DNA of 64,000 nucleotides from Gemmatimonadota bacterium (GTDB lineage Bacteria; Gemmatimonadota; Gemmatimonadetes; Palauibacterales; KS3-K002): positions 1,668,611 through 1,732,610 of the forward strand of contig CP070722.1 in assembly GCA_020350785.1 (NCBI GenBank), in the 5' to 3' direction. Under the pieces are notes generated by a model. That model was not told where the DNA came from. It worked only from the letters and a program-made list of their open reading frames with translations, and did not search any database. This document shows, in pieces, positions 1 through 39,127 of the stretch. Position numbers and translations under genes: made by a program. Numbering within the stretch: position 1 is the first letter of the stretch; each line of letters starts with the position of its first letter.

Positions 1-1
1 A

Positions 2-1951
2 GAACGTGCGCCGTCACCGGGTGCCGATGGGCAGCAGTCGCTCGCACACTATTCTTTGGGAATCGCGTTCAGGGCACGCGGATTCTACGGAGAGGCGCGT
101 CAAGAGTTCGAGCGTGGCCGCGCGGTCGGCGAGGAAGTGGATCTAATAGATCAGGCCGAGGCTGAGCTTGCGCTGCTCGATAGTGATGCGCAGGTAGCAC
201 TGGCGCGATACGATGCGCTTCTTGCACGCTCCGGCGGTAACTGCAAGCTGTGGAACGAGCGCGGGGTGACTCTACACTTGCTCGGTCGGTCGGGCGAAGC
301 CGAGGCGAGTTACCGTGAGGCGCTGAAACTCGACGGCGATTACGCCCTGGCCTGGAACAACGTGGGTGTACTGAGCGTGTATTGCGGTGACAGCCGGGGT
401 GCTGAAGAAGCCTTTGGCCGGGCGCTTGGGTGTCGACCGGATCTCGATGACGCGCGCTTCAACCTGGGCTTGCTCCTGGTTGCGACCGGCCGGGCGGACC
501 GTAGTCTGAGGATCTACCGCGAGATTCTCGAATCCGATGGGGGAAGGGCGGAAGCGTGGAACAGGCTGGGGGCAGCGCTGATGGAGCTGGATCGTGTAAG
601 GGAGGCCCGCAACGCGTTCGCGCGTGCCGTCGAGGCGGATCCGAGTCTGGCGTCGGCTCGGTATAACCTCAGCTTCGCTCTGGCGCGGCTGGGCGATCAC
701 GACGGCGCACTGAGGGAAACGAAGCAGGCGCTGGAGCTCGACCCCTACTATACAGCGCCGCGCTATAGGCTGTCGATCGACTTGCAGTACGAAGGCGGGG
801 AAGTCTGGGCGCCGGAGCTGGCGGCGCCTGAACGGTTGGAAGCTAGGGGGCCTGGCGTACGAGAGTTCGAGTTCGATCCGGCTGAACTCGCACAGGTATT
901 CGAAGAACTCGATTCGGTTGAACCGGAGGCTGGAGACAGGCGAGCGGGCGACCTGTTCCGCCTAGCTCGCGACAACCTGGAGAATGGACTTTACGATCGG
1001 GCGCTGTCGGAAGCGGTGCGCGCGCTGCGCGAGGATGGCGACTCTGCGGAGGGGGCGCTGATCATCGCCGAGGTGTACAGGCAGCGCGGGCTCTACGGCG
1101 AGGCACTGGAGCGGTTTGAGGAAGCGCGCTCGATTCGGCCCGGCAATCCGGAGGCGCTTGCGGGTGTCGTGGGTTGCCTGCTGCGGCTGGATCGGGCAGC
1201 GGAGGCCCGCGAGGTGGCCGAGGAACTGCAACCGCTGGCCGCTTCCAGCGTCGGGCACTTGCTTGTTGTGGCAGAGGCGTTGACGAGCACGGGTGAAGCC
1301 AAGCGAGCGATCGAGGTTCTTGGCGTTGCGAGCGAACATGCTCCGCACGATGCGGTCGTGCATCGCCAGATCGCTAAGGCCGCACTGGCGGCCGGGAATC
1401 GACGGCGGGCGCGCGAGGCATATCGGAGGGCTATTGCCGAGGATCCCGATTTCACGGCGGCTCGCGTCGAGTTGGGCCGGATGTTGATGGAGGAAGGGGC
1501 ATACAGCGAAGCGGAGGGCGAGGTCCGTCAGGCATTGGAGCTGGTGCCCGCCTATGCCGAAGCCAACTTCGTGCTCGCCGAGGTCCTCAGCCGGCAGGGT
1601 AAGACACGCGAGATCATCAATCTGCTGGCGGGTTTCTTGGAGGCCGAACCATTCAACCTTGACGCTTTGATGCTGCTCGGGGAAGCGCTAGGCAGAGAGG
1701 GGCGACGCAGGGAGGCGGAGCAGGCGCTGCGGATGCTGCTGCGATTCGATCCGGAGCGGCCGGCCGCTCTGTTCCGCCTCGGCGAGTTGGCATCGGAGTC
1801 GGGCCGTCACGAGGAAGCTCTTGGTTGCTGGCGGAGGCTCGTCGACCTCGACCCGGAAGGCGAGTACGCCACGCGGGCCAGACTAAAGGCACGAGCAGCC
1901 CGACGACTGGGCGGCGGCTTCGACGAGTTTACCGCAGGGAGTGGCGCCTGA
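2..1951 (+). CDS. TPR-repeat protein. The ORF is open to the window edge, so the 5' end is probably partial; the first in-window start is TTG at 56.
   Basis: Translation is rich in TPR-like helical repeats (recurring A/L/G/Y/E heptads, many 'EA...L..DP' units). There is no in-frame stop upstream of position 56, and the N-terminus reads like the middle of a repeat. The stop overlaps the start of the next gene (ATGA). Confidence 0.6.
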   Translation, partial: ERAPSPGADGQQSLAHYSLGIAFRARGFYGEARQEFERGRAVGEEVDLIDQAEAELALLDSDAQVALARYDALLARSGGNCKLWNERGVTLHLLGRSGEAEASYREALKLDGDYALAWNNVGVLSVYCGDSRGAEEAFGRALGCRPDLDDARFNLGLLLVATGRADRSLRIYREILESDGGRAEAWNRLGAALMELDRVREARNAFARAVEADPSLASARYNLSFALARLGDHDGALRETKQALELDPYYTAPRYRLSIDLQYEGGEVWAPELAAPERLEARGPGVREFEFDPAELAQVFEELDSVEPEAGDRRAGDLFRLARDNLENGLYDRALSEAVRALREDGDSAEGALIIAEVYRQRGLYGEALERFEEARSIRPGNPEALAGVVGCLLRLDRAAEAREVAEELQPLAASSVGHLLVVAEALTSTGEAKRAIEVLGVASEHAPHDAVVHRQIAKAALAAGNRRRAREAYRRAIAEDPDFTAARVELGRMLMEEGAYSEAEGEVRQALELVPAYAEANFVLAEVLSRQGKTREIINLLAGFLEAEPFNLDALMLLGEALGREGRRREAEQALRMLLRFDPERPAALFRLGELASESGRHEEALGCWRRLVDLDPEGEYATRARLKARAARRLGGGFDEFTAGSGA

Positions 1952-3084
1952 TGCCGATCGAGGGGACACTGCGCGAGTTCGCCCTGCCCGACATCTTTCA
2001 ATTGCTAAATATGTCACGCAAGTCGGGGGAGCTGGGTATCGTGCAGTCGCCGTCGGGTGTACGCGGAGCAGTGCTGTTCAGCGATGGAGCAGTGATAGAT
2101 GCTCGGTTGGCCGACACGCCCTCACGTTTGGCGTACATGCTTCTGAACGCCGGTAAGATCAGCGAGGCGGAACTACGCAAGGCGGAGCGAACGCACGCTA
2201 AGAACCCTGCACAAAGTTGGAAGGAGATATTCCGAGGATTGGGATCGGTTGCCACGGAAGACTTGGATGAATACGCCAGGTTCGAGGTTGAGGAGCATAT
2301 CTACGAGATCCTCGACTGGCGCGATGGCCATTTCGTTTTCAGCGAGCGATCGATCGCGAATTCAGAGCGCGTTACATTCATTCCGGTCGAGTCGCTGCTG
2401 ATGGAGGGGGCACGGCGTGCAGATGAGCTTTCCGCCCTTGGCGCCTCGCTCGAAGGTTCGGCGGCGATTCCCAGATTGGCAGAGCAGGCGGCGACGGACA
2501 CAGGCGTGATCGACTTGTCGCCTGAAGAGTGGGAGATCTTGGGTCGAGTCGATGGGGTGGCCAACGTGAGGACGCTCTCCTGGACGCTGGGTCGGAGCGA
2601 ATTCGAGGTGAGTAAGGCCATCTCGAGCTTGGTCGCCAAAGGCATCTTGGAGTTCGGCTCGCGTCGGGAAGCGATCGCTCCCGAGCGACAGGAAGACGTA
2701 CTCGGTCAAGCGGCAGAGCTGATCGAGCGAGACGAGATGCAGGCGGCGAGAGTTCGGATCGATTCCGCGCCGAAGAGAGGGCAAGATGAGCCTCGTGCGC
2801 AATACCTAGCAGCGCTCGTGTTGGAGCGGGAGGGCGATTTGCGCGGAGCGGAGCGAGGCTACGAGGGGATTCTAAGACTCGATCCATTAGCGCACGAGGC
2901 CCGGAAGCGTCTGGGCCTGGTGCGCCTCAAGCTGGGTGACATAGCTGGTGCCGCGCGGTCGTGGGAGTTCTGTCTCCAGGCCGCCTCCGACGCCGCCGAG
3001 CGCGAGCGGTTTGAGCGGGGGTTGAGAGCGCTGCGTGAGCTACAAGCTCTAATCCATGAGATCGATGACCGGGAAAACTCGTAG
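1948..3084 (+). CDS. DUF4388 (PATAN-like) domain protein with C-terminal TPR repeats
   Basis: The N-terminus MPIEGTLREFALPDIFQLLNMSRKSGELGI...VLFSDGAVIDA is the characteristic DUF4388/PATAN signature. The C-terminal third is TPR-like. The ATG overlaps the upstream stop (ctgATGcc), indicating translational coupling. Confidence 0.7.
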   Translation: MMPIEGTLREFALPDIFQLLNMSRKSGELGIVQSPSGVRGAVLFSDGAVIDARLADTPSRLAYMLLNAGKISEAELRKAERTHAKNPAQSWKEIFRGLGSVATEDLDEYARFEVEEHIYEILDWRDGHFVFSERSIANSERVTFIPVESLLMEGARRADELSALGASLEGSAAIPRLAEQAATDTGVIDLSPEEWEILGRVDGVANVRTLSWTLGRSEFEVSKAISSLVAKGILEFGSRREAIAPERQEDVLGQAAELIERDEMQAARVRIDSAPKRGQDEPRAQYLAALVLEREGDLRGAERGYEGILRLDPLAHEARKRLGLVRLKLGDIAGAARSWEFCLQAASDAAERERFERGLRALRELQALIHEIDDRENS

Positions 3085-3880
3085 GTCGTTGCAGGAGTTG
3101 AGCGCTGAAGTCGCAACGAACCCGGGTTCCACTGCGTTCGTGGAGCTTGCCGAGGCCTACCGTGAGCGGGGCGACACGGAACGGGCGTTGCGGCTGTGCC
3201 TGCGAGGGCTGCAACGGCACCCGACCCACGCGGCGGCGCACTACGAGCTCGGACGCATTTACGAGGCGCGGAGTGAGCGGGAGCTGGCGTTGGATGAGTT
3301 TGGAATCGTTCGCCAGCTGGCGCCCGATCATCTGCCGGGCCGTCTCGCGATCGCACGGCTCTACCTCGAGGAAGGTCGGCTCGAGGATGCCGAGCGCGAG
3401 TTGAACCGAGCGGGCCGCCTCGGGGAGAGGGAGCCTGCGATCGCCGCGCTGCGGAAAGAGCTCGCAGCTGCTCGCGCCGAGGAGGAGCTGATCCGAGCTT
3501 CAGCGCCCGAGCCGGAGCGCAGGTCGCTTGCGACGCTGGCGGAGGAGCATCCGGGAACACTCGGCATCCTACTGGTGGATGGCGATGGTCAGCTGATTGA
3601 CGGGGAGATGAAGGCCGGGGAATTCGAGTCAGGGCGCATGCTGGCTGTAACGCTGAGTGGCGCGCGCAAGGAGTCTGAGCGGGTCGCGAGCCATCTCCAG
3701 TTGGGAAAGCTGAAGCGGATCGTGATTGAGAGTCCGGAGATTCGACTGACGGTGTCGCCTGCGACGCGGGGCTTTGTGGTGGTCGCCGCGCGCGGTGACT
3801 CTCCGCCTGGACAAGCGGAGCTGCTGTTGCGCCGTGCGCGGGAGCTGAGCGACCGAGAGACGCCGGAGGCGACGGGTTGA
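3056..3880 (+). CDS. TPR + Roadblock/LC7 (MglB-like) fusion protein
   Basis: There are N-terminal TPR repeats. The C-terminal region GTLGILLVDGDGQLIDGEM...GRMLAVTLSG...LKRIVIESPEIRLTV fits the Roadblock/LC7 fold pattern. The gene overlaps the upstream gene's end and its stop overlaps the next start. Confidence 0.6.
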   Translation: MRSMTGKTRRSLQELSAEVATNPGSTAFVELAEAYRERGDTERALRLCLRGLQRHPTHAAAHYELGRIYEARSERELALDEFGIVRQLAPDHLPGRLAIARLYLEEGRLEDAERELNRAGRLGEREPAIAALRKELAAARAEEELIRASAPEPERRSLATLAEEHPGTLGILLVDGDGQLIDGEMKAGEFESGRMLAVTLSGARKESERVASHLQLGKLKRIVIESPEIRLTVSPATRGFVVVAARGDSPPGQAELLLRRARELSDRETPEATG

Positions 3881-4233
3881 AGACGGTCTACGCCGATCTA
3901 TTGAGGGAGATCATGCGCATGCCCGGCGTGCGAGGAGCGATCGTCGTCGCTGTGCGGGACGGGTTGGTCGTAGATGGACGTGTTCATGTTGGAATACGAA
4001 GTGATGCTGTCGCTGCGCTTGCGGCATCGCTCTTTCAGCGAGCGCTCCGCTCGACGGAGACAGGTAGGGAAGAGAGGCGGTTTGTCGAACTGGAGGCCGA
4101 CCGCGGCCGCATCATGATGGCGGGGGAAGGTGAGTTGGCCTTAATGGCCATACTTGAGCCCAGAGCCAACGCGGGTCAGGCGCGTTTGGCGATTCAGCGA
4201 GCGGCAACGGCGCTTGCGGGAGGCGGGGGGTAG
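3877..4233 (+). CDS. Roadblock/LC7 domain protein (MglB-like)
   Basis: 118 aa. The sequence MKTVYADLLREIMRMPGVRGAIVVAVRDGLVVDG...AALAASL...LEADRGRIMMAG is the canonical Roadblock/LC7 pattern. The start overlaps the upstream stop (GTTGA). Confidence 0.7.
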   Translation: MKTVYADLLREIMRMPGVRGAIVVAVRDGLVVDGRVHVGIRSDAVAALAASLFQRALRSTETGREERRFVELEADRGRIMMAGEGELALMAILEPRANAGQARLAIQRAATALAGGGG

Positions 4234-4239
4234 CGCTGG

Positions 4240-4728
4240 ATGCGGGGTCTCAAGCTGCGGCAGATCCAGGACACCTTTTCCGAACCGCTACAGGGATTCG
4301 TGCGTGATTCCGGGGTCAGGTCGTCAGTGTTGATCAACCGCAGTGGGCAGGTGCTCGCGCAACACGGTTTCGACAAGGTATTCGATCTCGTGGGTGTCGC
4401 TTCTCTTGCTGCCGGTATCAACGCGTCGAGCCGAGCGCTGGCCAGGCAGTTGGGGGAGGATGAGTTTGAGCACCTGCATCATGCTGGACGGTCTCGTCAG
4501 CTGTTCCTCGGACACTTCGAGGCGGCTGGGGGTCAGCTCATGCTTGTAGCCGTGTTCGATGAGCGCTCCTCGATCGGCCTGGTGCGTCTGTTCTTCGAGC
4601 AATTCGTTGCCAACCTGCGCGAGTTGCCCGAAATGCAGATTGTGCGGCCGGCGGAGAATGCGAGGGATTTCGAGGCTGATCTGGAGTCGAGCCTCGATCG
4701 ATTTTTCAGGGATCTGATAGGCGGTTGA
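4240..4728 (+). CDS. Roadblock/LC7-like protein (third paralog, divergent)
   Basis: 162 aa. The sequence VRDSGVRSSVLINRSGQVLAQHGFD...VGVASLAAGINASSRALARQLGE...LMLVAVFDERSSIGLVRLFFEQF matches the Roadblock topology. The stop is 1 nt before the mglA ATG. Confidence 0.5.
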   Translation: MRGLKLRQIQDTFSEPLQGFVRDSGVRSSVLINRSGQVLAQHGFDKVFDLVGVASLAAGINASSRALARQLGEDEFEHLHHAGRSRQLFLGHFEAAGGQLMLVAVFDERSSIGLVRLFFEQFVANLRELPEMQIVRPAENARDFEADLESSLDRFFRDLIGG

Positions 4729-4729
4729 T

Positions 4730-5368
4730 ATGTCGCTGGTGAACTACGCGACGCGGGAGATCACCTGCAAGATCGTCTACTACGGCCCGGGGCGGTCGGG
4801 CAAGACGACGAATTTGCAGTACGTATACAGCCGTGTGCCATGGAACCGGAAAGGCGAGATGGTTTCGTTGGCGACCGACTCGGACCGCACGCTTTTCTTC
4901 GATTTTCTGCCCTTGGAGTTGGGTCGGATATCCGGGTTCACGACGCGTTTTCAGCTGTACACGGTGCCGGGACAGGTTTACTACAACGCGACGCGCAAGC
5001 TAGTACTCCAGGGAGCTGACGGGGTAGTATTCGTAGCCGACAGTCAGCGATCACAGTTCGCTGAAGATATCGAGTCGTTCCGTAATCTTCAGGAGAATCT
5101 GTTGGAGCATGGCATCGACATCCGCGAGATCCCGGTCGTGATTCAATACAACAAACGGGACCTGCCCAACACATTCAGCGTCGCATACTTGGAGGAGGAG
5201 CTTAACTTCCGCAATGTGCCCAGTTTTCCGGCCGCCGCACTCCACGGGAAAGGGGTGTTCGACACGCTCCGATCGGTCAGCGAGGGGGTGTTGAGAAAAC
5301 TGGCCAGGAAGCTCAATGGCTCGACGGATGCGATCACACCAGAGGTTGACCGTGCCGGTAAACGTTGA
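4730..5368 (+). CDS. mglA: Ras-like polarity GTPase MglA
   Basis: Near-colinear match to my memory of Myxococcus MglA: CKIVYYGPGRSGKTTNLQYVY (P-loop), DSDRTLFFDFLPLELG (intrinsic Arg), YTVPGQVYY (switch II Gln), VIQYNKRDLP (G4 NKxD). Length is 212 aa. Confidence 0.9.
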   Translation: MSLVNYATREITCKIVYYGPGRSGKTTNLQYVYSRVPWNRKGEMVSLATDSDRTLFFDFLPLELGRISGFTTRFQLYTVPGQVYYNATRKLVLQGADGVVFVADSQRSQFAEDIESFRNLQENLLEHGIDIREIPVVIQYNKRDLPNTFSVAYLEEELNFRNVPSFPAAALHGKGVFDTLRSVSEGVLRKLARKLNGSTDAITPEVDRAGKR

Positions 5369-5375
5369 CCCACGG

Positions 5376-6536
5376 ATGACCTTCTTTTCCTTTGTGGTCG
5401 GTCCGGAGAATCGGCTTGCCTGGGAGGCGGCGCGCACGGCGGCTGAATCACCAGGATCTGCCTACAATCCACTCTTCATTTACAGCCATACCGGGCTGGG
5501 CAAGACGCACCTGCTGGTGGCCATCGCTAACCGAGCCAGCGAGCTTCAGCCCGACATTGCAGTTGTTTATACGCCGGTCGAGCAACTATTGCGGGAGCTG
5601 GGTTCAGAATCGGGCGTAGAGGCAACCTACCACGGCGCCGAGATTCTACTCATTGATGATCTTCAATTCATCGGCCACCACAGCGACGACCACCGGGTCC
5701 TTTTCTCCTTACTCGATGACCTGTTGATGAGAGGCAGGCAGGTGGCGCTTGCCTGCGATCGGCCGCCTCTGGAGTTGGGAGAACTGGATGATCGGCTACT
5801 CTCGAGGTTCAGCGGTGGGCTGGTTGTCGATATCGGCCGCCCGGTGCTCGAGACGCGCAAGGCTATACTGGAAGCTCGTCTGGCTGCCGCCGATCTGAGA
5901 CTGCAACCTGAGGTCGTTGATGCGATCGCGCGCTTGGCGTCAGAGAACGTTCGGCAACTCAACGGTGCGCTCAATCGAGTCCTCGCGGCTCAAGAAGTGG
6001 AAGGGCGCGAAGTCCGACCGGATGAGGTGGATGGCCTACTGGTCGAACTCGTGGGCGATGCCGACCTTCCCTGGCTGGCGGACGGTCGCCGCGGCGACGA
6101 GAGCGAGTTCCAGAGTTTCTTGACCGACGTGTCCTCTGCTGTCGAGCGAGCTCTGACGACCCCGAAGTGGCATGAAGATGTGGCGCGAGCGATCCTCAAG
6201 TGGGAGGCGGAAGGCTACTCGACTCGGCGCTTGGAACAGTTGCTGGAGGACGAGAAGCCGGTCGATTCCGAGCACGAGGTCGCGGCCTACGAACAGGATA
6301 TCGAAACTCTCAGGGGTCTGCAGCGCGACTTTGACCAGTTGCAGGTCCAGGTGCCGAAAGATCTGTCTTTCAAAGATCCGGCTGCGATCCCCCAGCTGCG
6401 AGCGTTGTTGGAACGGTTGCGCCGCACCGCCCTCGCCGTGGACGACTACTTCCTTGACCCGGAGAAGGTCATCTGGGACTGGCCTGTGTTCGATCAGAAG
6501 TTCATGGAGAGCTGGGACGATGGCGATCAAAGGTAG
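5376..6536 (+). CDS. DnaA-like AAA+ ATPase paralog (DnaA domain III only; the domain IV HTH appears absent and is replaced by an acidic C-terminal domain)
   Basis: Motifs seen: FSFVVGPENRLAWEAA...NPLFIYSHTGLGKTHLL (DnaA box VII/Walker A), LLIDDLQF (Walker B), LACDRPP (sensor I), SRFSGGLVVDIGRPVLETRKAIL, and NVRQLNGALNRV (sensor II). The C-terminal ~150 aa has no DnaA signature (HTH/DNA-binding) motif. The ATG at 5376 is 8 nt after the mglA stop, and the stop overlaps the next gene. Confidence 0.75.
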   Translation: MTFFSFVVGPENRLAWEAARTAAESPGSAYNPLFIYSHTGLGKTHLLVAIANRASELQPDIAVVYTPVEQLLRELGSESGVEATYHGAEILLIDDLQFIGHHSDDHRVLFSLLDDLLMRGRQVALACDRPPLELGELDDRLLSRFSGGLVVDIGRPVLETRKAILEARLAAADLRLQPEVVDAIARLASENVRQLNGALNRVLAAQEVEGREVRPDEVDGLLVELVGDADLPWLADGRRGDESEFQSFLTDVSSAVERALTTPKWHEDVARAILKWEAEGYSTRRLEQLLEDEKPVDSEHEVAAYEQDIETLRGLQRDFDQLQVQVPKDLSFKDPAAIPQLRALLERLRRTALAVDDYFLDPEKVIWDWPVFDQKFMESWDDGDQR

Positions 6537-8145
6537 CCTGAAAGAGGCAAGCCTTCCCGACGTTCTCCAGCTCCTGGCCATGGGAGGCAAGACTGGCTGT
6601 CTCTCAGTGACGGACCGGCAGAGCTTCGGCTACGTGTATCTGGAAGAGGGTCGGGTCATCTACGCATCGCTGTTTAACCGCCGAGACCGTCTGGGGGACA
6701 TCCTCGTTCGCGAGGGCGTGGTCACGCGCGAGCAAGTCGAAGAAGCCTTGGTTGAGCAGAATCAGAAGAAGGATGGCCGGCGGATCGGCGACATTCTAAA
6801 GGATCGGGGGGAGATCGATCAGGCGGTTCTGGAACGTTATGTGGGGCACCAGGTCGAGGAAGCTGTTTATCAACTATTTGCCTGGAGCCAAGGCACCTTC
6901 TACTTCGAGCCTGCACAATCGCCGGAAGACGAGACCATCCTTGTTTCGATCGATACGGAGAGCCTTCTGCTGGAGGGCGCGCGCCGGGTTGACGAGTGGA
7001 GTCAGATTCAGAAGAAGATCCCGTCGTTCGAGCTGATATACGCTCTCGATCCGGACCGTTCGTTGTCCATATCCTCGCTGGACTTGAGCGCTGAACAACA
7101 GAAGATACTTCCCTATCTCGATGGCAGGCACAGCGCCTGGGAGATAATCGAGCTCACCGCCATGAGCGACTTCGGTCTCGGCAAAGCGCTGTACGGACTG
7201 ATCGCGGCGGGTCTGGTGCGACGCGTGGGCCGGCGCGAACGGCAAGCCGAGCGACCCCAGATACAGGCGCGGGTGCGAGAGCACAAGAACCTGGGGATCG
7301 CCTTCTACAAGACGGGTCTTTACGAGGAGGCTCTGAGGGAGCTGGAGAGGGTACGCGAGTTGGATCTGGATGACTTGGAAGCCGACTTCTGTCTCGCGCT
7401 TGTGGAGCTGCGGCGCGGTAAGCTAGAAGACGCGGGTCAAGCGCTCATGGGGATCAGAAAGCGCGGTGGCAGTTGTGCCGCGCTCTTCAACAATCTAGCT
7501 CTCGTCTACGATGGACTAGGAAGGCGGTCGCAGGCGATGTCGCTAATTGATGAGGGTTTGGCGAGGCACGAAGGCCATCCGAGGCTCGTGCTCACCAAGT
7601 CGATGCTTCTGCTCAAGCTCGGCAACACGGCGGAGGCACGGGAAGCGCTCGACCGGTACTTGGAGAAGGTGGAAGAGCCCGAGCCGCTGTACTACTCGAC
7701 TCGAGCTCTGGCCGAGGCCATGTCGGCCGACATCGCCTCGGCGACCGTGACCGCGTTAGCGGGCTTAGCCAAGCATCCGAATGAGGCAGCACTGAGCAAC
7801 AACGCCGGAGTAATACTGGAAAGGGATGGTGACCTGAGTCGAGCTCGGTCAATGTATCAGAGGGCGCTCGATTTGAATGGTGACTTGCCTCAGGCATCGA
7901 AGAACCTCGGCGACCTGCTCTACCGCGAGGGGGAGTACGATGATGCGGCCCGTGCCTACGAACAGGCCTTGCGGGTGGATCCTCAGCTCGGCGACGACAT
8001 CTACGCGAGACTGGGTAATATCTATTACAAGGCTGGGGGGAGGGAAATAGCGATCGAGATGTGGGAGAAGGCGCTCCAGCTCAACCCGGCCAATGAAGTG
8101 GTGCGAACGAACCTGGAGTTTGTGAAGGGGGCGATTCGTGAGTGA
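6520..8145 (+). CDS. DUF4388 (PATAN-like) domain protein with C-terminal TPR repeats (second paralog)
   Basis: The N-terminus MAIKGSLKEASLPDVLQLLAMGGKTGCLSVTD...VYLEEGRVIYA parallels gene 1948-3084. The remainder is TPR-like. The start overlaps the end of the DnaA-like gene. Confidence 0.7.
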   Translation: MAIKGSLKEASLPDVLQLLAMGGKTGCLSVTDRQSFGYVYLEEGRVIYASLFNRRDRLGDILVREGVVTREQVEEALVEQNQKKDGRRIGDILKDRGEIDQAVLERYVGHQVEEAVYQLFAWSQGTFYFEPAQSPEDETILVSIDTESLLLEGARRVDEWSQIQKKIPSFELIYALDPDRSLSISSLDLSAEQQKILPYLDGRHSAWEIIELTAMSDFGLGKALYGLIAAGLVRRVGRRERQAERPQIQARVREHKNLGIAFYKTGLYEEALRELERVRELDLDDLEADFCLALVELRRGKLEDAGQALMGIRKRGGSCAALFNNLALVYDGLGRRSQAMSLIDEGLARHEGHPRLVLTKSMLLLKLGNTAEAREALDRYLEKVEEPEPLYYSTRALAEAMSADIASATVTALAGLAKHPNEAALSNNAGVILERDGDLSRARSMYQRALDLNGDLPQASKNLGDLLYREGEYDDAARAYEQALRVDPQLGDDIYARLGNIYYKAGGREIAIEMWEKALQLNPANEVVRTNLEFVKGAIRE

Positions 8146-8203
8146 TGCGGCGCTTCGAACGCCGCCACTGGAGATCGACGAAGGACGCAGCTAGTTCTCT
8201 CTC

Positions 8204-9178
8204 ATGAGCGAAGGGGCTCGATGCGTCGCTTGGCTGGCTATCCCGATCTTGTGGTCGGTGGCTGCGGGTCAGGGCGGCCCGCAGGGCCAGGTCCGGGTGG
8301 GCGCCGTGACACTCCATTACTGGCCCGGCCAAAGGGCTGCGGCGGAGGCGCTGGCGGCTGGGCTTGAGCAACCCGTGCCTATGCCGGGGCTACCCGAGGA
8401 TATTCTGGCCGGGGGCACGATCACCGTCTACCTGGCTCCGGATCCACAGACGTTCGACTCGCTCGCGCCCGGGGTACCCGATTGGAGTGGAGCTATAGCC
8501 TTTCCGGAGGGCGACGAGATCGTTCTGCCGGTATTCTCCTCCCGCGGGGGTGGAGTCCCGCTGGCGGTGGTGCTCCAGCACGAATTGGCGCACGTGGCGT
8601 TGAGCCGGTACCTGGGGAGGCGAGTACCGCGCTGGTTTCACGAGGGCTACGCTCAACTGGCGTCCGGTAGCTGGGGGTCCGAAGACGCCTGGGCGCTGAG
8701 GTTCGCCATCCTGCTGGGCAAGCTGCCCTCGCTCGAGGCGATCGATCTGGAATTTCGCGAGGGGCGCGTGCGGGCCGATCACGCGTATCTTCTTTCCCAC
8801 ACTGCGGTCGAGCACCTCTATCGTCTGGGCGGGAAAGCCGGTTTCGCGCGGTTGCTGGAGCGCTGGCGCGAGGTCGGAGAACTCGACCTTGCCATGCGAC
8901 GCACCTACGGGTTGACCCAGGGCCAATTCGAGCGGACCTGGCGACGCGAAGTGGGGCGCCGGTTCGGTTGGCTGCTTGTACTGACCCAGACGATCGTATT
9001 CTGGACGATGTTGACGATCATTCTGCTCGTTCTGGGGTACTGGAAGAAACGGCGGACGCGTCGCAAGCTGGTGGCTCTGGAGGCCGCGGTGGCGGCGGCT
9101 GAGGCGGATGCGCTTGCCAATGCGGCCTTAGATCGAGGTGCTGATTTGGCTGATGAAGGCGTAATTGACGGGCCGTAG
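8204..9178 (+). CDS. Membrane-anchored Peptidase_MA_2-like (HEXXH) protein
   Basis: Signal-like N-terminus; HELAHVALSRYLGRRVPRWFHEGYAQLAS (HExxH...E zincin-like motif shared with gene 58983-61625); C-terminal TM segment (LLVLTQTIVFWTMLTIILLVLGYW) followed by an Ala-rich tail. Confidence 0.5.
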   Translation: MSEGARCVAWLAIPILWSVAAGQGGPQGQVRVGAVTLHYWPGQRAAAEALAAGLEQPVPMPGLPEDILAGGTITVYLAPDPQTFDSLAPGVPDWSGAIAFPEGDEIVLPVFSSRGGGVPLAVVLQHELAHVALSRYLGRRVPRWFHEGYAQLASGSWGSEDAWALRFAILLGKLPSLEAIDLEFREGRVRADHAYLLSHTAVEHLYRLGGKAGFARLLERWREVGELDLAMRRTYGLTQGQFERTWRREVGRRFGWLLVLTQTIVFWTMLTIILLVLGYWKKRRTRRKLVALEAAVAAAEADALANAALDRGADLADEGVIDGP

Positions 9179-9204: not shown

Positions 9205-9495
9205 ATGCCAGAGGTAGATCCACGACGACGAAGCGGACGCGGGTCGCGAGCGGCCCGCGAGAGGACTAAGGCTGAGCGGATGGGTAGTCCGGCACGAGCT
9301 ACGGGGAATGGGCCCGGGCCACGCGCACTGCAGTTCACACGGCTCAACTGGGTGCTGCTTGGCGGAGGCGTGGTTCTCATTGTGACTGGCTATGCGGCTC
9401 TGGGGAGAAGCTCACCGCTCCTGTCGACAGTCCTGGCGCCGCTACTTCTGGTCGGGGCCTACGCGGTCCTGATCCCGCTGGGCCTGATACGCTGA
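9205..9495 (+). CDS. Small hypothetical membrane protein (basic N-terminus, two predicted TM helices)
   Basis: ORF with hydrophobic C-terminal half (WVLLGGGVVLIVTGYAALG...LAPLLLVGAYAVLIPLGLI). No recognisable family, and the start is uncertain. Confidence 0.3.
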   Translation: MPEVDPRRRSGRGSRAARERTKAERMGSPARATGNGPGPRALQFTRLNWVLLGGGVVLIVTGYAALGRSSPLLSTVLAPLLLVGAYAVLIPLGLIR

Positions 9496-9630: not shown

Positions 9631-9754
9631 TTGCAGGCTGGCAAGAGACGCGGCTGAACTGGCTGGCTCGGTTGGCCGACGTGGACCGAAGATCGGGAAC
9701 TTCATTTCGCGGGTGGCGCCCGCGGGGAAGCACCCTAGTCTTGGAGATCAACTC

Positions 9755-11500
9755 ATGAAGCTCGAGATCACCGCTCGCATAGCAGTAGCCCGTGTGGCTC
9801 TCGCGGCAGCGACCCTCGTCGTACTGCTTTTGCCGCCCCTCGCCCGTGAGTCGCAGGCTGCCGGCCAGCAAGAGCCTGGGGGACGTTTCCGCGTTCTCGT
9901 GGTTCCGTTGGAATCCAGCGCGCTCGACAAGAAATTCGGTGGTAAGGTAGCTGACGAGATCCGAAAGCGGCTCGAGGATTTTAGCACTCACGCCCCGATA
10001 CCTGTGAAGGAGTACTCGCGCGCGCTCAAGCAGTACGAGGTCAAGGAAGAGGAGCTGAACGCGATCAAGGCGAGGCAGCTTGCAAATCTGATGGGCGCGC
10101 AGGTTGCCTTCTACGGGACGATCGAAGCCGCCGGGGGAGCCTATCGGGCAGACGGCGTCTTCATCGGCGTGCAGAGCGGTGATGAGCTCCACGTGCCTGC
10201 CGTCACGATTAGTGACAAGAGCAACGAGTCGGTGAGCAAAGTAGCGGATGCGGCGATCGCCGCCTTTCAGCAGCAGGTGCAGTTCGACCGAGCTGTGACT
10301 TTCTGCGCCGACTACGTGGGGAGCCAGCAGCCCGAGAACGCGATCCGCAACTGCAATGAGGCCCTGGCGATCAACCCGGGCAGCGTGCCGGCGCTGTTCA
10401 ACAAGGGGCTAGCCTTTCGCCAGATGTTCGAAGGCGAGACGGCTGGCACGAATGGCTGGGCGGACTCGGCGGTCCACTACTTCGAAAGGGTGCTCGAGGT
10501 TCAGCCGGGCAAGCGCGAGGCCATGCAGAACGCGGCCTACATCTACTCCAAAGTGGGTGCGGCCGAGAAGGCCAGCGAGCTTTACAAGCAGTACCTGGAG
10601 CTGGATCCCGGTAATGTCCCGGTTCGCCTCAAGGTCGCCTACGACCTGGCGCAAGCGGAACTGATGGTCGAGGCCATCGAGATCATCCAGGCCGGCCTCG
10701 AGTTCGCCGAGGAAGACGTCGACCTCCTGCAGTCGCTGGGCGACTACTCGCTCCGCTACTCGTCGCAGGATTCCACCTATCTGGACACGGCCCTGGAGGC
10801 CTACGAGAAGGTGTTGCGGGTCAAGGGTGAGGAGACCGATCTGACCATCCTCGTGAACGCGCTGGCCGCCTACACGCAGGCAAACCGGACCGATGAGGCG
10901 ATCGCCTTCGCCGAACGCGCCCTCCAGTCACACTCGGACAGCCCACGGCTGTGGGCGGTTTACGCCGACGCGCTTGGCCGGAAGGAGAGGTACAGAGAGG
11001 CCAGCGCGGCGATGGACAAGGTGCTGGAACTCGATCCGTCTTATGCCAACGCCTACCTCAAGCGAGGTCAGTTCAAACTGCGCGCCGGCGATGAGGCCGC
11101 CGGGATGGCCGACTTCACCAATGCGATCGAAAGTGGCAGCTCCTCACAGGACGACGTCTTCCGCTTCTTCTGGGGTGAAGGCCACGCGGCGCGCAACGAG
11201 AAGGATTACTCTAAGGCGATCTCAGAGTTTGAGCGGGCCAACCGTTTCGTGGAGGCGAGCCAAAGGCGCGAGCTGGAGTTCTGGTGGGCTTACACCTACT
11301 ACCAGCTTGGGGAGCAGCAGGCGACCCCGGAGGGTGCCGGCGTCAGCCAGCTGAACCGGGCGCAGTCCAACTTCCAGGCGGCGGTTGATCATTTCGAGCG
11401 AGCGGGCAACGTGAGGGCCGAGGTTGCTCAGCTAAAGGATGCGGCTGACAAGTGGCTGCTCAATATCGATGCCCGAATCAGGCGGGCGCAGCGCGGCTAG
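9755..11500 (+). CDS. Secreted/lipoprotein-like TPR-repeat protein
   Basis: MKLEITARIAVARVALAAATLVVLLLPPLA is a signal peptide. The body is TPR-rich (AYDLAQAEL..., AYLKRGQFKLRAGDEAAG...). The upstream in-frame ATG at 9713 is also possible. Confidence 0.6.
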   Translation: MKLEITARIAVARVALAAATLVVLLLPPLARESQAAGQQEPGGRFRVLVVPLESSALDKKFGGKVADEIRKRLEDFSTHAPIPVKEYSRALKQYEVKEEELNAIKARQLANLMGAQVAFYGTIEAAGGAYRADGVFIGVQSGDELHVPAVTISDKSNESVSKVADAAIAAFQQQVQFDRAVTFCADYVGSQQPENAIRNCNEALAINPGSVPALFNKGLAFRQMFEGETAGTNGWADSAVHYFERVLEVQPGKREAMQNAAYIYSKVGAAEKASELYKQYLELDPGNVPVRLKVAYDLAQAELMVEAIEIIQAGLEFAEEDVDLLQSLGDYSLRYSSQDSTYLDTALEAYEKVLRVKGEETDLTILVNALAAYTQANRTDEAIAFAERALQSHSDSPRLWAVYADALGRKERYREASAAMDKVLELDPSYANAYLKRGQFKLRAGDEAAGMADFTNAIESGSSSQDDVFRFFWGEGHAARNEKDYSKAISEFERANRFVEASQRRELEFWWAYTYYQLGEQQATPEGAGVSQLNRAQSNFQAAVDHFERAGNVRAEVAQLKDAADKWLLNIDARIRRAQRG

Positions 11501-11525: not shown

Positions 11526-11559
11526 GAGCCCGGGCAAAGAGCCCGGGCTCTTTTTTTTT
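11526..11559 (+). terminator. Rho-independent terminator
   Basis: GAGCCCGGGC-aaaga-GCCCGGGCTC forms a perfect 10-bp GC stem followed by T9, located 26 nt after the TPR gene stop. Confidence 0.8.
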
Positions 11560-30904: not shown

Positions 30905-32851
30905 GTGACGCTGTTGAAGTCGGCACTCTTCATTCTTGGGACCGGGTCGATCATCTACTTCGTGCGTTGGTGGTATCGCGCACATGAGGAGCCGGTGCGA
31001 GGCCGCGTCTGGGCGGCCGGATTGCGCTCGGCCGCCATCTGTTTCGCTTATCTCATCCTGTTGAATCCGACCGTTTCGACGAGACAGCCGACTGGGGAAC
31101 GGGAACAGGCGGTCCTCCTGGATGCCTCTTTGAGCATGTCAGGTCGCCTGGGCCCCGGTCCGACGAGCGTCTGGCAGGCTGCAGCGGAGTCGGCGGGCCG
31201 GGTCGACGGCGTGTGGCTGTTCGGTGGTGAGGTGCCGGCGCATTCGTCAAAGGATTCCCTGCCGCCCGAACCGTTCTTCACAGAGTCGCGGTTGGCGCCG
31301 GCGGTACGCACGGCAGCCACCTCGGCGGTGAGCCTGGTCGCTTACACCGATGGGCGGATTAGCGATATAAGCACAAGCCTGGAAGAAGCACGCCGGCGCG
31401 GTGTCGGCCTCCAGATCGTGGTTCTCGGCACGGAGTATCCGGGAATTGGCATCTCCGAGTTGTCAGCGCCGACCTGGGCCGAGCTGGGCGATACGGTCGT
31501 CGTCCGGGCAGAGATTGTAGCCCGGATGGCTGAGCGCGAGAGCGTGACCGTCGAGATCGTGGATGAGGCGGAACGGGTCCAGGCTGCCCTGAGTGTGCGT
31601 GTTCCGGCGGGCACTCGCTTCAGTCCCGCGCACCTCGCCTTGCCGGTTTCGGGCGCCGTGGGCATGCGCCGCTACAGCGCGCGGTTGCGCGGCGAGGAGC
31701 TCGATCTTGAAGGCCGCGACAACGCTCGCACCTTCTATATCGACCTCCAGGCAAGGCCGCTTGGCCCCGTGCTCGTCTCGCTGACCCCGGATTGGGAGGC
31801 TTCCTTTCTGCTATCCAGTCTGGAGCGCCTGTCCGAGGCGCCAGTCCACGCCTACGTCTGGCTGGCGGACAGTCTGGTGGATATGAGCGACTACACACCG
31901 GCCTCTCAGACCCAAGTGATCCGCCGAGCCCGAGAGGCGCCACTTCTGGTTCTGCAAGGCTACGGGGCCGGGTCGCCCGCTTGGGTGCAAAGCCTGGCGC
32001 AAAGCGCTCGGCGACTCCTGGTACTGCCCGCGGGCGCGCAGCCCTTCGAGCTTCCCGGCTGGGGAGTGCGGATCGGCCCGCCGGCCTCCGGGGAGTGGTA
32101 CGTGGCTGGAGAGTTGCCGTCTTCTCCTTTGGCTCTTGACGTGGGAGGTTACCCGATCGATGCGCTGGCGCCCGTGCTTCGCGTGAGGAGGATCTCGGTG
32201 GACGGTGCGGCCTGGCCGGTGTTGAACCTGCAGCTACTCAGACGCGGCGGGCCGTTGCCGGCCCTGCTGGCGGGTCGCTCGGACGGGCGTCGCTGGGCCG
32301 TGGCCAGCGGCGAAGGGTACTGGCGTTGGGCATTCAGACCCGGTCCGAGTCGCCAGCTCTACCGGGCCCTCTGGACTGCCGTGGCGGGGTGGCTGATGGA
32401 AGGCGAGCGTGTCGCCGATTCGAGTCTGAAGCCGCTGGAGACAGTCGTGAGCCGAGGCGAGTCGATAGAGTGGCTGACAGCGCCGAGTCTGGATTCTATG
32501 TCGGTAGAGGTGCGAGAAACGGAGGGTGCTGTGGTCTGGTCGGGTTCGGCGTTGGAAGAGGACTCGCTTGAAGTCGCCCTTCCCCCGGGCCGCTACGTCT
32601 ACCGGGCGCAGGCCTGGCGCGGTGGGGCAGCAGTGTCTTCCGCGCAAGGCCCGGTTGAAGTCGAAGAGTTTTCCCGCGAATTCCTACCGGGCGCCAGCGT
32701 GACTGCGGACTCGACGGCAGCCACCTTCGTGGCGGGTGAGAGCGCAGAGGCGCACGGCAGGGGACTCGCTACGCTTGGCTGGCCCTACCTGTTGCTGATG
32801 GCGCTCTTTTCGGCCGAGTGGGTGGTACGGCGCCTGAGCGGGCTGCGTTGA
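30905..32851 (+). CDS. BatA-like membrane protein with vWA (MIDAS) motif (orphan paralog of gene 55691-57991)
   Basis: N-terminal TM pair (FILGTGSIIYFVRWW; AAICFAYLILLNP), LLDASLSMSG MIDAS-like DxSxS, and a C-terminal anchor PYLLLMALFSAEWVVRRLSG that closely mirrors the C-terminus of gene 55691-57991 (LLLIGLVSAEWGYRRSRG). Confidence 0.6.
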   Translation: MTLLKSALFILGTGSIIYFVRWWYRAHEEPVRGRVWAAGLRSAAICFAYLILLNPTVSTRQPTGEREQAVLLDASLSMSGRLGPGPTSVWQAAAESAGRVDGVWLFGGEVPAHSSKDSLPPEPFFTESRLAPAVRTAATSAVSLVAYTDGRISDISTSLEEARRRGVGLQIVVLGTEYPGIGISELSAPTWAELGDTVVVRAEIVARMAERESVTVEIVDEAERVQAALSVRVPAGTRFSPAHLALPVSGAVGMRRYSARLRGEELDLEGRDNARTFYIDLQARPLGPVLVSLTPDWEASFLLSSLERLSEAPVHAYVWLADSLVDMSDYTPASQTQVIRRAREAPLLVLQGYGAGSPAWVQSLAQSARRLLVLPAGAQPFELPGWGVRIGPPASGEWYVAGELPSSPLALDVGGYPIDALAPVLRVRRISVDGAAWPVLNLQLLRRGGPLPALLAGRSDGRRWAVASGEGYWRWAFRPGPSRQLYRALWTAVAGWLMEGERVADSSLKPLETVVSRGESIEWLTAPSLDSMSVEVRETEGAVVWSGSALEEDSLEVALPPGRYVYRAQAWRGGAAVSSAQGPVEVEEFSREFLPGASVTADSTAATFVAGESAEAHGRGLATLGWPYLLLMALFSAEWVVRRLSGLR

Positions 32852-32867: not shown

Positions 32868-34949
32868 ATGAGTGGCACATCGATACTCGACCGACCGGTT
32901 CAGTACCTGAAGGGTGTGGGTCCGCGCCGCGCTGAAGCGTTAGGCAAGCTGGGCATAACGCGGGCGCGTGACCTGCTCCGGCACGCTCCCCACCGTTATC
33001 TCGATGCTACGACGGTGACGCCGATTGCCCGGTTGGCGCCGGGGATGGAGGGCACGGCGATCGGTGACGTCGTGTCAAAAGGCGTCATTCCGACGCGCAA
33101 GGGCCTGCGCCTCTTTCAGGCGGTCATTCGGGACTCCTCGGGGCTGATCGAGTGTTCGTGGCCGGGCCAGCCCTTCCTCGACCGAACGATTCGCAAGGGC
33201 GACACTCTCCTAGTCGCCGGCCCGGTGCGCTTTTTCCACGGCAGGCAAATCCAGCCGCGTGAGTTCACGGTCCTGGCGCGGGCCGGTGACTCGGCCGATG
33301 AGGAGGGAACCGTGTTCCCGGTCTATCCGGCGACGGCGAATCTGACCCATCGGCAGATCCGCCGAATAGTGCAGGAGAATCTGGACGGGCTACTCGCAGC
33401 CGCCGAACAGGAGGAGTCCGTTGTCAGTGAGGGCTTACGACGTGAACATGGATTAGCCACTCTGAGAGAGGCGCTGGAGTGGCTGCACAGACCGCCTACG
33501 TTGGCGCATGCGGAGGAAGCGCGTCGGCGCCTGGCCTTCGAAGAGCTCTTTGTCCTTCAGGTGCTCTACGCGCGTGCCCGCTACGAGAACCGTGAGAGTC
33601 GCCGGGGTGTGGCGTTCGAGCGCAAGAACTCCCTCGTCGGGCCGTTCTCGAAGGCGCTTCCTTTTCAACTCACTGCTGCCCAGAAGAAGGTATTGGCGGA
33701 AATCTCGAAGGACATGTCGAAGCCTCAACCGATGAACCGCCTGCTGCAAGGAGACGTTGGCAGCGGCAAGACCGTGGTGGCTGTGTTCGCGATGCTGCGA
33801 GCCATCGAGAACGGCTACCAGGCCGCTTTGATGGCGCCTACCGAACTTCTGGCCGAGCAACACTTCGCGACGATCCAGCAACTGCTGACCGAGCTTCCCG
33901 TTCGTACGGGCTTGCTGCGTGGTGGGCTCAAAACGTCTGAGCGGCGCGCTGTATTGGAGGAGGTAGCCAGCGGCGAAGCACAACTAATAATAGGGACACA
34001 CGCTCTGATTCAGGAGAGCGTCGAGTTTCAGCGCCTCGGGCTCGCCGTCATCGATGAGCAGCATCGCTTCGGCGTTCGACAGCGGATGAAGCTGCGGCGC
34101 GCTGGTGCGGATCCAGATGTTCTCGTCATGTCGGCGACACCGATCCCGCGATCCCTGGCCCTGACATTCTACGGAGACCTCGATATCTCGGTCCTCGACG
34201 AGCTGCCGCCGGGCCGCCGTCCCGTGCGGACGGTGCTTCGCCGAGCGAGCGCAAGGTCGCGAGTCTTCGAGTTCCTGCGGGCCGAGGTGGCATCGGGCCG
34301 TCAGGCATATGTGGTCTATCCAGTCATCGAGGAATCAGAGACGCTGGATGTGCGCTCGGCGACGGAGGCTTTTGAGCATCTCTCGAAAGAGGTGCTAGCG
34401 GATCTCAGGGTCGGGCTGATCCATGGTCGTCTACCGAGCGATCAGAAAGACGATATCATGCGGCTGTTCGTGTGCGGGGAGATCGATGCGCTGGTTTCCA
34501 CGACGGTGATCGAGGTTGGCATCGATGTTCCGAATGCAAGCGTCATGATCGTGGAGGGGGCGGAGCGGTTCGGCCTCTCACAGCTACACCAGCTACGGGG
34601 CCGGGTCGGGAGGGGCGGGGCTCAGAGCTACTGCATCGTTCTCTACGTCGGCGCGGAGCCGCCGGAGCGACTGGCGATCTTCGCCTCCACCAACGACGGG
34701 TTCGAAATCGCCCGCGCCGACTTACGACTGCGAGGATACGGCGAATTCTTCGGCGCAAAGCAACACGGTCTTCCAGAGTTCACCTTCGCCGATCTCTCCC
34801 GCGATGAGCCACTGCTCCATGCGGCGCGCGATGCTGCAGCGCGCATCATTGGAACCGATCCGCTGTTGGAGCGCCGAGAGCAGCGGGCCTTGAACCAGGC
34901 GTTGCGCAGCGAGTATCGGGAGCGGCTACAGCTTTACGATGTAGGTTGA
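32868..34949 (+). CDS. recG: ATP-dependent DNA helicase RecG
   Basis: N-terminal wedge domain. Helicase motifs LLQGDVGSGKT, DEQHRFG, SATPIPRS, QLHQLRGRVGRG and a RecG-type C-terminus. Confidence 0.9.
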   Translation: MSGTSILDRPVQYLKGVGPRRAEALGKLGITRARDLLRHAPHRYLDATTVTPIARLAPGMEGTAIGDVVSKGVIPTRKGLRLFQAVIRDSSGLIECSWPGQPFLDRTIRKGDTLLVAGPVRFFHGRQIQPREFTVLARAGDSADEEGTVFPVYPATANLTHRQIRRIVQENLDGLLAAAEQEESVVSEGLRREHGLATLREALEWLHRPPTLAHAEEARRRLAFEELFVLQVLYARARYENRESRRGVAFERKNSLVGPFSKALPFQLTAAQKKVLAEISKDMSKPQPMNRLLQGDVGSGKTVVAVFAMLRAIENGYQAALMAPTELLAEQHFATIQQLLTELPVRTGLLRGGLKTSERRAVLEEVASGEAQLIIGTHALIQESVEFQRLGLAVIDEQHRFGVRQRMKLRRAGADPDVLVMSATPIPRSLALTFYGDLDISVLDELPPGRRPVRTVLRRASARSRVFEFLRAEVASGRQAYVVYPVIEESETLDVRSATEAFEHLSKEVLADLRVGLIHGRLPSDQKDDIMRLFVCGEIDALVSTTVIEVGIDVPNASVMIVEGAERFGLSQLHQLRGRVGRGGAQSYCIVLYVGAEPPERLAIFASTNDGFEIARADLRLRGYGEFFGAKQHGLPEFTFADLSRDEPLLHAARDAAARIIGTDPLLERREQRALNQALRSEYRERLQLYDVG

Positions 34950-36790: not shown

Positions 36791-36921
36791 ACCTCCCCGA
36801 GGCGGATCTATGTTGGCCGCCCGAGCACTGTGGCACTCGCACGAGAAGGGCGGGCGGCGCTCCGCAGGATTGGCGTTTAGGTTGGCAGCGTTTCCTCTCG
36901 TCACCTCGAGACTCCGACTAG

Positions 36922-39083: not shown

Positions 39084-39127
39084 GAACACTGGCGTCCTCT
39101 ATACTGACGGCCGTAAACACTGACACG

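Follow-up and report, generated by a model that had tools for sequence, protein, structure and literature searches.

The first 8,145 nt of a 64,000-nt stretch of Gemmatimonadota DNA (contig CP070722.1; "the window" below is this whole stretch) carry eight plus-strand open reading frames (ORFs), g1-g8, which are the conserved core of a ~16-gene chemotaxis-type (che) operon found in all three Gemmatimonadota lineages that we sampled. The block centers on an MglA-type small GTPase and its predicted partner MglB, with two further Roadblock domains, tetratricopeptide repeat (TPR) arrays, two PATAN (DUF4388) proteins and an ATPase derived from DnaA. We hold these statements on the identity and context of the system with high confidence. 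An earlier reading of the same DNA from its letters alone (the "sequence-only reading") had recognized an MglA-centered polarity module richer than the mglBA pair, a view that proved sound, and all eight of its ORFs were found on the plus strand at the positions given here. It had missed the che nesting, the truncation of g1 at the window edge, a predicted cyclic di-GMP (c-di-GMP) motif of the MshEN type in g8, and a deletion of cheR-cheD-cheB-cheWW in this genome. The eight genes are as follows:

g1, <1-1951, plus strand: large TPR protein, truncated at its 5' end by the window edge (649 of ~899 codons present)
g2, 1951-3084, plus strand: PATAN (DUF4388) domain, winged-helix-like segment and TPR, without receiver domain
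g3, 3056-3880, plus strand: N-terminal TPR fused to a C-terminal Roadblock/LC7 domain
g4, 3877-4233, plus strand: small stand-alone Roadblock/LC7 protein, TTG start at 3877
g5, 4240-4728, plus strand: MglB orthologue with C-terminal helix extension
g6, 4730-5368, plus strand: MglA, a small GTPase of the group-1 type
g7, 5352-6536 (GTG start) or 5376-6536 (ATG start), plus strand: DnaA-derived AAA+ ATPase
g8, 6520-8145, plus strand: PATAN (DUF4388) domain with alpha-clip insertion, winged-helix-like segment and long TPR array, without receiver domain

The larger unit is apparent in relatives, where the gene order is cheW-cheY-cheA-cheC/X-[g1..g8]-cheR-cheD-cheB-cheW/cheW. We scanned one genome per species with an alignment of the private C-terminal domain of g7 as query and found 201 loci, the best 80 of which were taken. 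All 80 are Gemmatimonadota: a Palauibacterales-like clade including Ca. Kutchimonas (the window proteins are 60-88% identical to this clade, which is the basis for placing the window in Palauibacterales), Longimicrobiaceae, and Gemmatimonadales/Gemmatimonadaceae. When every component was searched by tblastn, the 16 genes proved colinear in nearly all loci of sufficient length, with g1 following cheC/X at a median gap of 3 nt and with a median intergenic distance of -29 to +20 nt at each junction from cheC/X through cheR (53-81 loci). Three examples of the che-nested block are L001, a complete Gemmatimonadota chromosome of 4.74 Mb; L003, a contig from Gemmatimonadales; and L004, the closest relative found, whose g7 is 85% identical. 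The sequence-only reading had proposed a gene-neighborhood survey for synteny, and this one finds the eight-gene order conserved in ~80 species (from the best 80 of the 201 loci, all Gemmatimonadota). Because the same order and spacing recur across these species, the arrangement is not a product of chance, and chance co-location was rejected on the strength of this colinearity. In L004, Pfam resolves the che set into a CheA of the form Hpt-dimerisation-HATPase-CheW without a receiver (REC) domain, a CheY that is a single receiver domain, CheC/CheX, CheR, CheD, CheB and a double-CheW protein; no chemoreceptor gene is present in the L004 cluster.

Within g1-g8, adjoining genes overlap by 1-29 nt or stand <=7 nt apart. 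Specifically, g1/g2 overlap by 1 nt (at 1951), g2/g3 by 29 nt (3056 vs 3084; 29 nt is also the median over 66 loci), g3/g4 by 4 nt (TTG at 3877) and g7/g8 by 17 nt (6520 vs 6536), while gaps of 6 nt and 1 nt separate g4/g5 and g5/g6. The g6/g7 junction is a 7-nt gap if g7 begins at ATG 5376 and a 17-nt overlap if it begins at GTG 5352, the start that fits the length of its homologues (392-394 aa). The tight junctions described by the sequence-only reading were thus borne out, and the same spacing recurs across 55-80 species. A terminator scan within 1-8145 gave no convincing terminator-like site, and a promoter scan gave nothing beyond shuffled expectation. The claim of one eight-gene operon therefore holds for the single-unit packing and the lack of an internal terminator but not for the extent of the unit, which in relatives is the ~16-gene che operon; given the che flanks, colinearity and tight spacing there, the eight genes are the conserved middle of something larger.

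At the left edge, the reading frame of g1 is open from base 2 and has no start codon in the window. The protein aligns to residues 252-899 of the 899-aa L004 orthologue (82% identical), and as the N-terminal part is missing from the alignment, ~750 nt of the gene should lie past the edge. Domain calls were made at Pfam gathering cut-offs (23 bits for Robl_LC7), and every call in g1-g8 lies above threshold. The Roadblock, DUF4388 and DnaA assignments of the sequence-only reading, for which it had named a profile search as the check, were upheld in this way; its accession for DUF4388, PF13614, was wrong (the correct one is PF14332), and belongs to what we take to be an unrelated AAA family. TPR arrays are present in g1, g2, g3 and g8, with multiple TPR family matches in g1 (e.g., TPR_2 at 3.8e-50).

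In almost every other locus that is long enough (~75 other species), cheR-cheD-cheB-cheWW sit between g8 and a peptidase gene. Set side by side with L004, the present genome is cleanly missing these four genes, ~3.3 kb in all, and the junction that remains is short:

Deletion scar, 8138-8203, plus strand: first cheR codons (GTGAGTGA) followed directly by the final ~50 nt of the spacer between cheWW and the peptidase gene

No che genes were detected within the 64-kb window; the upstream cheW-cheY-cheA-cheC/X, if present in this genome, would lie past the window edge. Despite the deletion, g1-g8 are all intact and are 79-90% identical to their counterparts in the che-bearing L004.

At the center of the block, g6 matches Myxococcus xanthus MglA (5ymx) over residues 1-193 at E 1.7e-75 and ~65% identity and Thermus thermophilus MglA (3t12) at E 4.9e-71, with full-length alignment also to 6h17 (range 1e-71 to 1e-75). 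Group 1 of the MglA family is marked by a P-loop, by an Arg finger and a catalytic Gln (R53 and Q82 of M. xanthus MglA) and by a Thr in place of the Asp of DxxG (TVPGQ). In g6 the P-loop reads GPGRSGKT, and both the Arg (in DRTLFFDF) and the Gln (in YTVPGQ) are kept, as the sequence-only reading had noted; across 79 g6 orthologues the P-loop, DRTLFFDF and TVPGQ are >=90% conserved. Judged by these features, g6 is a true, group-1 MglA. Its upstream neighbor g5 carries a Robl_LC7 domain (39.0 bits, 6.8e-10), matches the NCBIfam MglB model at 9.1e-16 (under that model's cut-off) and is similar to MglB structures in the PDB (6h5b at 1.9e-13; 6h5b, 6izw and 1j3w range from 2e-13 to 5e-12); T. thermophilus MglB (1j3w) aligns to g5 residues 15-154, the C-terminal helix region included. 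A Roadblock protein that adjoins mglA and bears a C-terminal helix extension is how an MglB is recognized from sequence, and we assign g5 as the MglB of g6 on this basis.

The count of three Roadblock proteins, one of them fused to TPR, likewise stood. In g3, TPR_19 (8e-11) precedes a Robl_LC7 domain at residues 162-242 (1.7e-06, 28.1 bits), and g4 is a stand-alone Robl_LC7 protein (1.2e-09, 38.2 bits). The best PDB match of g4 by phmmer is a generic Robl_LC7 protein (7f8m, 2.6e-05), and its matches with E <1 comprise generic Robl_LC7 proteins and a dynein light chain only; identity with MglC was tried and dropped, as this search matched neither MglB nor MglC. BLASTP gave no significant alignment between g4 and the Roadblock domain of g3, and by their sequences both are classed as generic Roadblock domains. 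A g4-sized slot of ~337 nt lies between g3 and g5 in every locus, even where g4 is too divergent to be detected.

The two PATAN proteins, g2 and g8, match DUF4388/PatA_N (PF14332) at 91.1 bits (6.9e-26, residues 4-160) and 135.4 bits (1.3e-39), respectively, and g8 adds matches to many TPR families. They are paralogues in the PATAN region (31% identity over 240 aa). As the sequence-only reading had it, neither has a receiver domain: no Pfam match to Response_reg was obtained in g2 or g8, and TPR repeats follow the PATAN domain instead. Identity as PatA-type response regulators, in which REC is C-terminal to PATAN, was rejected for this reason. g8 is 45-85% identical to its orthologues in 78 loci. 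A phmmer search of g8 against the PDB, swamped by TPR matches, returned no solved PATAN structure. A winged-helix-like segment lies between PATAN and TPR in both proteins, at 2506-2667 in g2 (aa 186-239) and at ~7078-7224 in g8 (aa ~187-235); in g2 these residues (186-239) also gave a weak CasR-like match in PADLOC (E 5.5e-4).

The helical insertion of the g8 PATAN domain, its alpha-clip, holds the following:

Tandem MshEN-type predicted c-di-GMP motif in the g8 PATAN domain, 6688-6852 (aa 57-111), plus strand: RLGDILVREGVVTREQVEEALVEQ / RIGDILKDRGEIDQAVLERYVGHQ

The MshEN motif consists of two tandem 24-residue copies of RLGxx(L/V/I)(L/V/I)xxG(L/V/I)(L/V/I)xxxxLxxxLxxQ (PMC5013675). Both copies are found in g8, with conservation of their R-L-G and Q positions across 78 orthologues. 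The insertion scores 47.5 bits against NCBIfam NF053729 ("c-di-GMP_motif, MshE-related"; cut-off 38), and a 71-aa fragment matches residues 6-65 of Vibrio cholerae MshEN (5htl) at E 4.6e-08 and the T. thermophilus PilF c-di-GMP domains at E 4e-12. We therefore describe the g8 alpha-clip as a predicted c-di-GMP-binding motif of the MshEN type. The g2 alpha-clip (aa ~58-115, 2122-2295) has RLA...H as its first half-motif and no longer has a second, so that the tandem pattern is absent; g2 orthologues in Gemmatimonadales keep a full tandem MshEN-like motif, which is degenerate in the clade of the window. PATAN alpha-clips have been likened to the N-termini of pilus and secretion ATPases (10.1101/2021.06.11.447907), and in the literature searched we found no statement that they bind c-di-GMP.

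The remaining partner, g7, matches Bac_DnaA at 135.9 bits and has a complete DnaA-type domain III (Walker A, Walker B, sensor I, box VII arginine and sensor II), with these catalytic motifs conserved across 110 homologues. DnaA domains I/II and IV are missing, and Pfam, NCBIfam and structure-sequence matching revealed no other known DNA-binding domain in the protein. Identity as the replication initiator DnaA was rejected, since domains I and IV are absent and the match to TIGR00362 (DnaA) covers positions 108-339 only, at 221 bits vs a cut-off of 343.9. g7 is much nearer to Bacillus subtilis DnaA (8.8e-41) than to Hda in the PDB (~1e-06). Hda carries an N-terminal clamp-binding motif of the QL[SP]LF type; g7 begins MTFFSFVVG without such a motif and scores 73.6 bits against TIGR03420 (Hda; cut-off 194.8), and Hda identity was likewise rejected.

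In place of domain IV, the C-terminal 160 aa of g7 (nt 6051-6536) form a modelled helical bundle that is unrelated to it, has no informative structural neighbor and ends in a conserved FxD.EKV.W.WP tail. This domain is rare (153 cluster representatives among 1.84 billion) and occurs in two architectures only, one of ~390 aa and one of ~650 aa, a tandem double-ATPase typical of Gemmatimonadales. In that order the g7 orthologue (L003, L026-L084) has two tandem DnaA domain-III modules with the same helical domain between them and an EKVVWDWP-type tail. Homologues of g7 are abundant and the named ones are all Gemmatimonadota; a further search that started from a Gemmatimonadaceae g7 was saturated by uncultured Gemmatimonadales, and exact-match look-ups with the g6 and g7 proteins of the window returned no record. 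Public pipelines label both forms "chromosomal replication initiator protein DnaA," probably a misannotation and, with hundreds of g7-type ATPases carrying the label, a systematic one.

What might such an operon do? We propose, with a confidence slightly better than even, that it encodes an MglA switch, controlled by chemosensory signals and modulated by c-di-GMP, which sets the position of a polar apparatus other than a flagellum, probably type IV pili. By analogy with Myxococcus, where Frz is reported to act on MglA/MglB (PMC3441718; PMC4316618), a chemoreceptor-CheA-CheY pathway would feed into the MglA GTPase cycle. MglB (g5) would be the GTPase-activating protein for MglA, and g3/g4 could form a second Roadblock dimer or platform, with MglB as the partner to be scaffolded or tuned, in the manner of MglC in Myxococcus. 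For the TPR proteins we suggest a role as effectors or scaffolds of MglA-GTP, like that of SgmX or Bd2492. The PATAN proteins would link the switch to the non-flagellar apparatus at the pole (the type IV pilus motor being the most probable one), on the pattern of cyanobacteria, where PATAN-REC regulators bind PilB1/PilC in Synechocystis (10.1101/2021.06.11.447907); two PATAN proteins also turned up in SgmX proximity labelling in Myxococcus (PMC11580455). Through its MshEN-type alpha-clip, g8 may add a c-di-GMP input, and g7 might be an ATP-dependent oligomerising scaffold or timer, its conserved tail perhaps docking to one of the TPR arrays. We favor a non-flagellar output because Palauibacterales metagenome-assembled genomes (MAGs) are reported without flagellar genes except in one species (PMC10469786), and the chemosensory genes, as operon partners, point to chemosensory control rather than division-site selection.

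Several observations weigh against this proposal. All of its mechanistic steps rest on analogy, and the role proposed for g7 is without precedent. Che sets that contain CheC/CheD are typical of flagellar systems in other phyla. Neither the cluster nor the 64-kb window holds a chemoreceptor or pilus gene, and g4 and the g3 Roadblock domain resemble neither one another nor MglC to a detectable degree. Lastly, one further genome (L069; JACQHC010000051) is independently without the same four che genes that are missing here. These two losses imply that the adaptation arm is not needed for the core block to be retained.

A more far-reaching alternative, which we offer tentatively and consider possible rather than probable, is that the operon represents a distinct Che output class. 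Here chemosensory input would be hard-wired to a small GTPase in one operon that is neither flagellar nor Pil-Chp/Frz-like, MglA would be accompanied by the DnaA-derived ATPase (single or tandem) in the role of a second nucleotide switch or an oligomeric scaffold, and the PATAN-TPR proteins would couple CheY and c-di-GMP to pole identity. If true, the parts list could supply the missing chemosensory-PATAN-MglA links that are unresolved in Myxococcus and cyanobacteria.

The next alternative concerns what lies downstream, where three genes separate the block from mraZ:

8204-9178, plus strand: Peptidase_MA_2 membrane protein (Pfam)
9205-9495, plus strand: small membrane protein, a conserved neighbor
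9713-11500, plus strand: TPR lipoprotein-like protein (Pfam)
11526-11553, terminator-like on both strands: GC-rich hairpin with T-run, between the TPR lipoprotein gene and mraZ

The peptidase, a membrane protein of ~70-96 aa and the TPR lipoprotein always lie between the che-mgl cluster and mraZ/rsmH/ftsI, across orders (L001, L003, L004 and others); conserved by order, they may be members of the system, as candidates only. The hairpin has a 10-pair stem with 9 GC pairs on the minus strand and 7 pairs followed by TTTTTTT on the plus strand, and probably insulates the upstream genes from the division and cell wall (dcw) operon. The block lies upstream of mraZ/rsmH/ftsI in the window, in 15 same-clade relatives and in the Gemmatimonadales locus L003, and since the last belongs to another order this synteny spans orders. 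It could be argued from this that the MglA module and the DnaA-like ATPase mark the pole or division plane in a division-site, budding or cell-cycle polarity machine tied to dcw, the more so as g7 derives from a replication initiator and as budding-like division has been reported for Gemmatimonas. We think this unlikely. Seven genes (four che and three others) separate g8 from mraZ in relatives, and three genes plus a strong terminator-like hairpin do so here, so that the block is not directly upstream of dcw as the sequence-only reading had claimed. The nearest genes in the operon serve chemosensing rather than division, and g7, which lacks domains I and IV and has no other DNA-binding domain detected, is for that reason not evidence of a replication link. 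Moreover, an order conserved across a phylum can stem from vertical inheritance alone. Of the "cell-polarity or division-site machine" in the sequence-only reading, the polarity module thus survives, while the division-site link, for which dcw synteny is the one argument, appears unlikely.

The deletion raises another possibility, i.e., that after losing the adaptation genes, and perhaps the upstream che genes as well, the module in this genome has become a constitutive, che-independent polarity module or is heading to loss. The clean excision of cheR-cheD-cheB-cheWW, the lack of che genes in 64 kb, the independent loss in L069 and the degenerate g2 alpha-clip of the clade are all in keeping with it. 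However, the eight ORFs are intact, with catalytic and binding motifs conserved and 79-90% identity to L004; the upstream che region lies outside the window; and CheA-CheY signalling in other systems survives the loss of the adaptation enzymes. On balance decay or independence appears improbable. In either case, this genome and L069, both naturally without the adaptation arm, offer a comparative handle on which parts are dispensable.

It might also be supposed that g1-g8 are an accessory block of a flagellar chemotaxis operon, in which MglA and its partners position or regulate flagella, since the cheA/W/Y/C/D/R/B set resembles the flagellar che operons of other phyla and some cultured Gemmatimonadota are flagellated. 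This is very unlikely, as the Palauibacterales MAGs that are reported to lack flagellar assembly genes in all but one species (PMC10469786) belong to a clade that keeps the cluster, no flagellar genes lie in or near it, and the known outputs of MglA and PATAN are pili or gliding. An anti-phage defense reading was rejected because a PADLOC scan of g2-g8 gave marginal matches only (E 1e-4 to 6e-4).

The rest of the 64-kb window contains dcw, RecG (32868-34949), a BamB-like protein (35594-36928, minus strand), MazG (38285-39742, minus strand) and ComEC (47492-49834), and no pilus or flagellar genes were found there. An 880-aa protein at 58983-61625 combines TPR arrays with Peptidase_MA_2 and is a possible paralogue of the peptidase at 8204-9178. 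Four ORFs of 357-766 aa (30905-32851, 40664-41959, 49915-50988 and 55691-57991) have no Pfam match at E <= 1e-5.

One known system close to the proposed chemosensory MglA switch is the Myxococcus polarity module (MglA, MglB, MglC, RomR/RomX, Frz, SgmX). Both have a group-1 MglA with Arg finger and Gln, MglB directly upstream, extra Roadblock proteins (MglC there), TPR proteins as candidate effectors and a chemosensory pathway associated with the GTPase switch. However, mglA lies away from the genes of its signalling partners in Myxococcus (Frz and RomR) and in Bdellovibrio (PMC4316618), whereas the GTPase block here is nested in a che operon. The present cluster also lacks RomR/RomX, FrzZ/FrzX, a CheA-REC fusion and a chemoreceptor gene; of its two extra Roadblock domains, one is part of a TPR fusion and neither has an MglC-like sequence; and a DnaA-type ATPase and two PATAN-TPR proteins are integral to it. 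Identity with Frz itself was rejected, since in L004 CheA has no REC (FrzE is a CheA-REC), CheY is a single REC (FrzZ is dual) and there is no FrzCD-like receptor gene.

The other systems share parts with the cluster. Like the cyanobacterial Tax/Pix operons, in which PatA-type PATAN-REC proteins act on PilB1/PilC, it places PATAN with an alpha-clip insertion in a che-type operon with a proposed role in the polarity of surface motility; unlike them, its PATAN proteins have TPR arrays and no REC, CheY is a separate protein, and MglA/MglB, missing from the cyanobacterial operon, are present. The tandem 24-residue motif of g8 is that of the MshEN receptors (V. cholerae MshE, T. thermophilus PilF), with a significant match to 5htl and a score above the NCBIfam cut-off, but it is inserted within PATAN rather than N-terminal on a secretion or pilus ATPase, its spacer has 7 residues vs 5, and motif position 10 is not always Gly in the orthologues. 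g7 shares a complete DnaA-type domain III with the DnaA/Hda family and departs from it in lacking domains I/II and IV, in standing much nearer to DnaA than to Hda, in its private helical C-terminal domain and in its tandem duplication in Gemmatimonadales. The Bdellovibrio hub (MglA-Bd2492-RomR-CdgA) is reported to be another small-GTPase module with a TPR partner and a c-di-GMP connection; RomR and CdgA homologues are absent from the cluster here, and che genes and a DnaA-type ATPase occur only here. Actinobacterial conservons (CvnA-D) are likewise multi-gene small-GTPase operons with a Roadblock partner, but the block has no histidine kinase or DUF742 and its MglA is group-1-like rather than of the conservon type, so this identity was rejected.

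The novelty claimed by the sequence-only reading has accordingly to be divided. PATAN genes adjoining group-1 mglA/mglB were published by Makarova in 2006 and by Wuichet and Sogaard-Andersen in 2014 (PMC4316618) and recited in 2021 (10.1101/2021.06.11.447907). Table S2 of the 2014 survey lists Gemmatimonas aurantiaca GAU_1409 as "PATAN>MglA>-PATAN>," a possible instance of this cluster (PMC4316618). These surveys give PATAN, MglA and MglB symbols only, with no che flanks, DnaA-type ATPase, TPR-Roadblock fusion or MshEN motif. In the literature searched, we found no description of an mglBA block nested in a che operon, of a DnaA-derived ATPase partner or of the TPR-Roadblock plus Roadblock pair, and no work on MglA in Gemmatimonadota beyond a mention of Gemmatimonadetes in the 2014 survey. 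The PATAN-mglA/mglB association is thus already known, while the nesting in a che operon, the ATPase partner derived from DnaA and the two additional Roadblock proteins are without precedent in the literature searched.

How chemosensory systems are wired to MglA is a matter of debate in Myxococcus, with its partner genes dispersed over the genome, and PATAN domains have no assigned function outside cyanobacteria. By uniting the che genes with MglA/MglB, a further pair of Roadblock domains, four TPR and two PATAN proteins and a DnaA-type ATPase, the Gemmatimonadota operon provides a defined list of candidate partners. It is not categorically new: set beside the systems above, it is a compact, co-encoded form of the chemosensory-controlled MglA polarity pathway, and its novel parts are lineage-specific.

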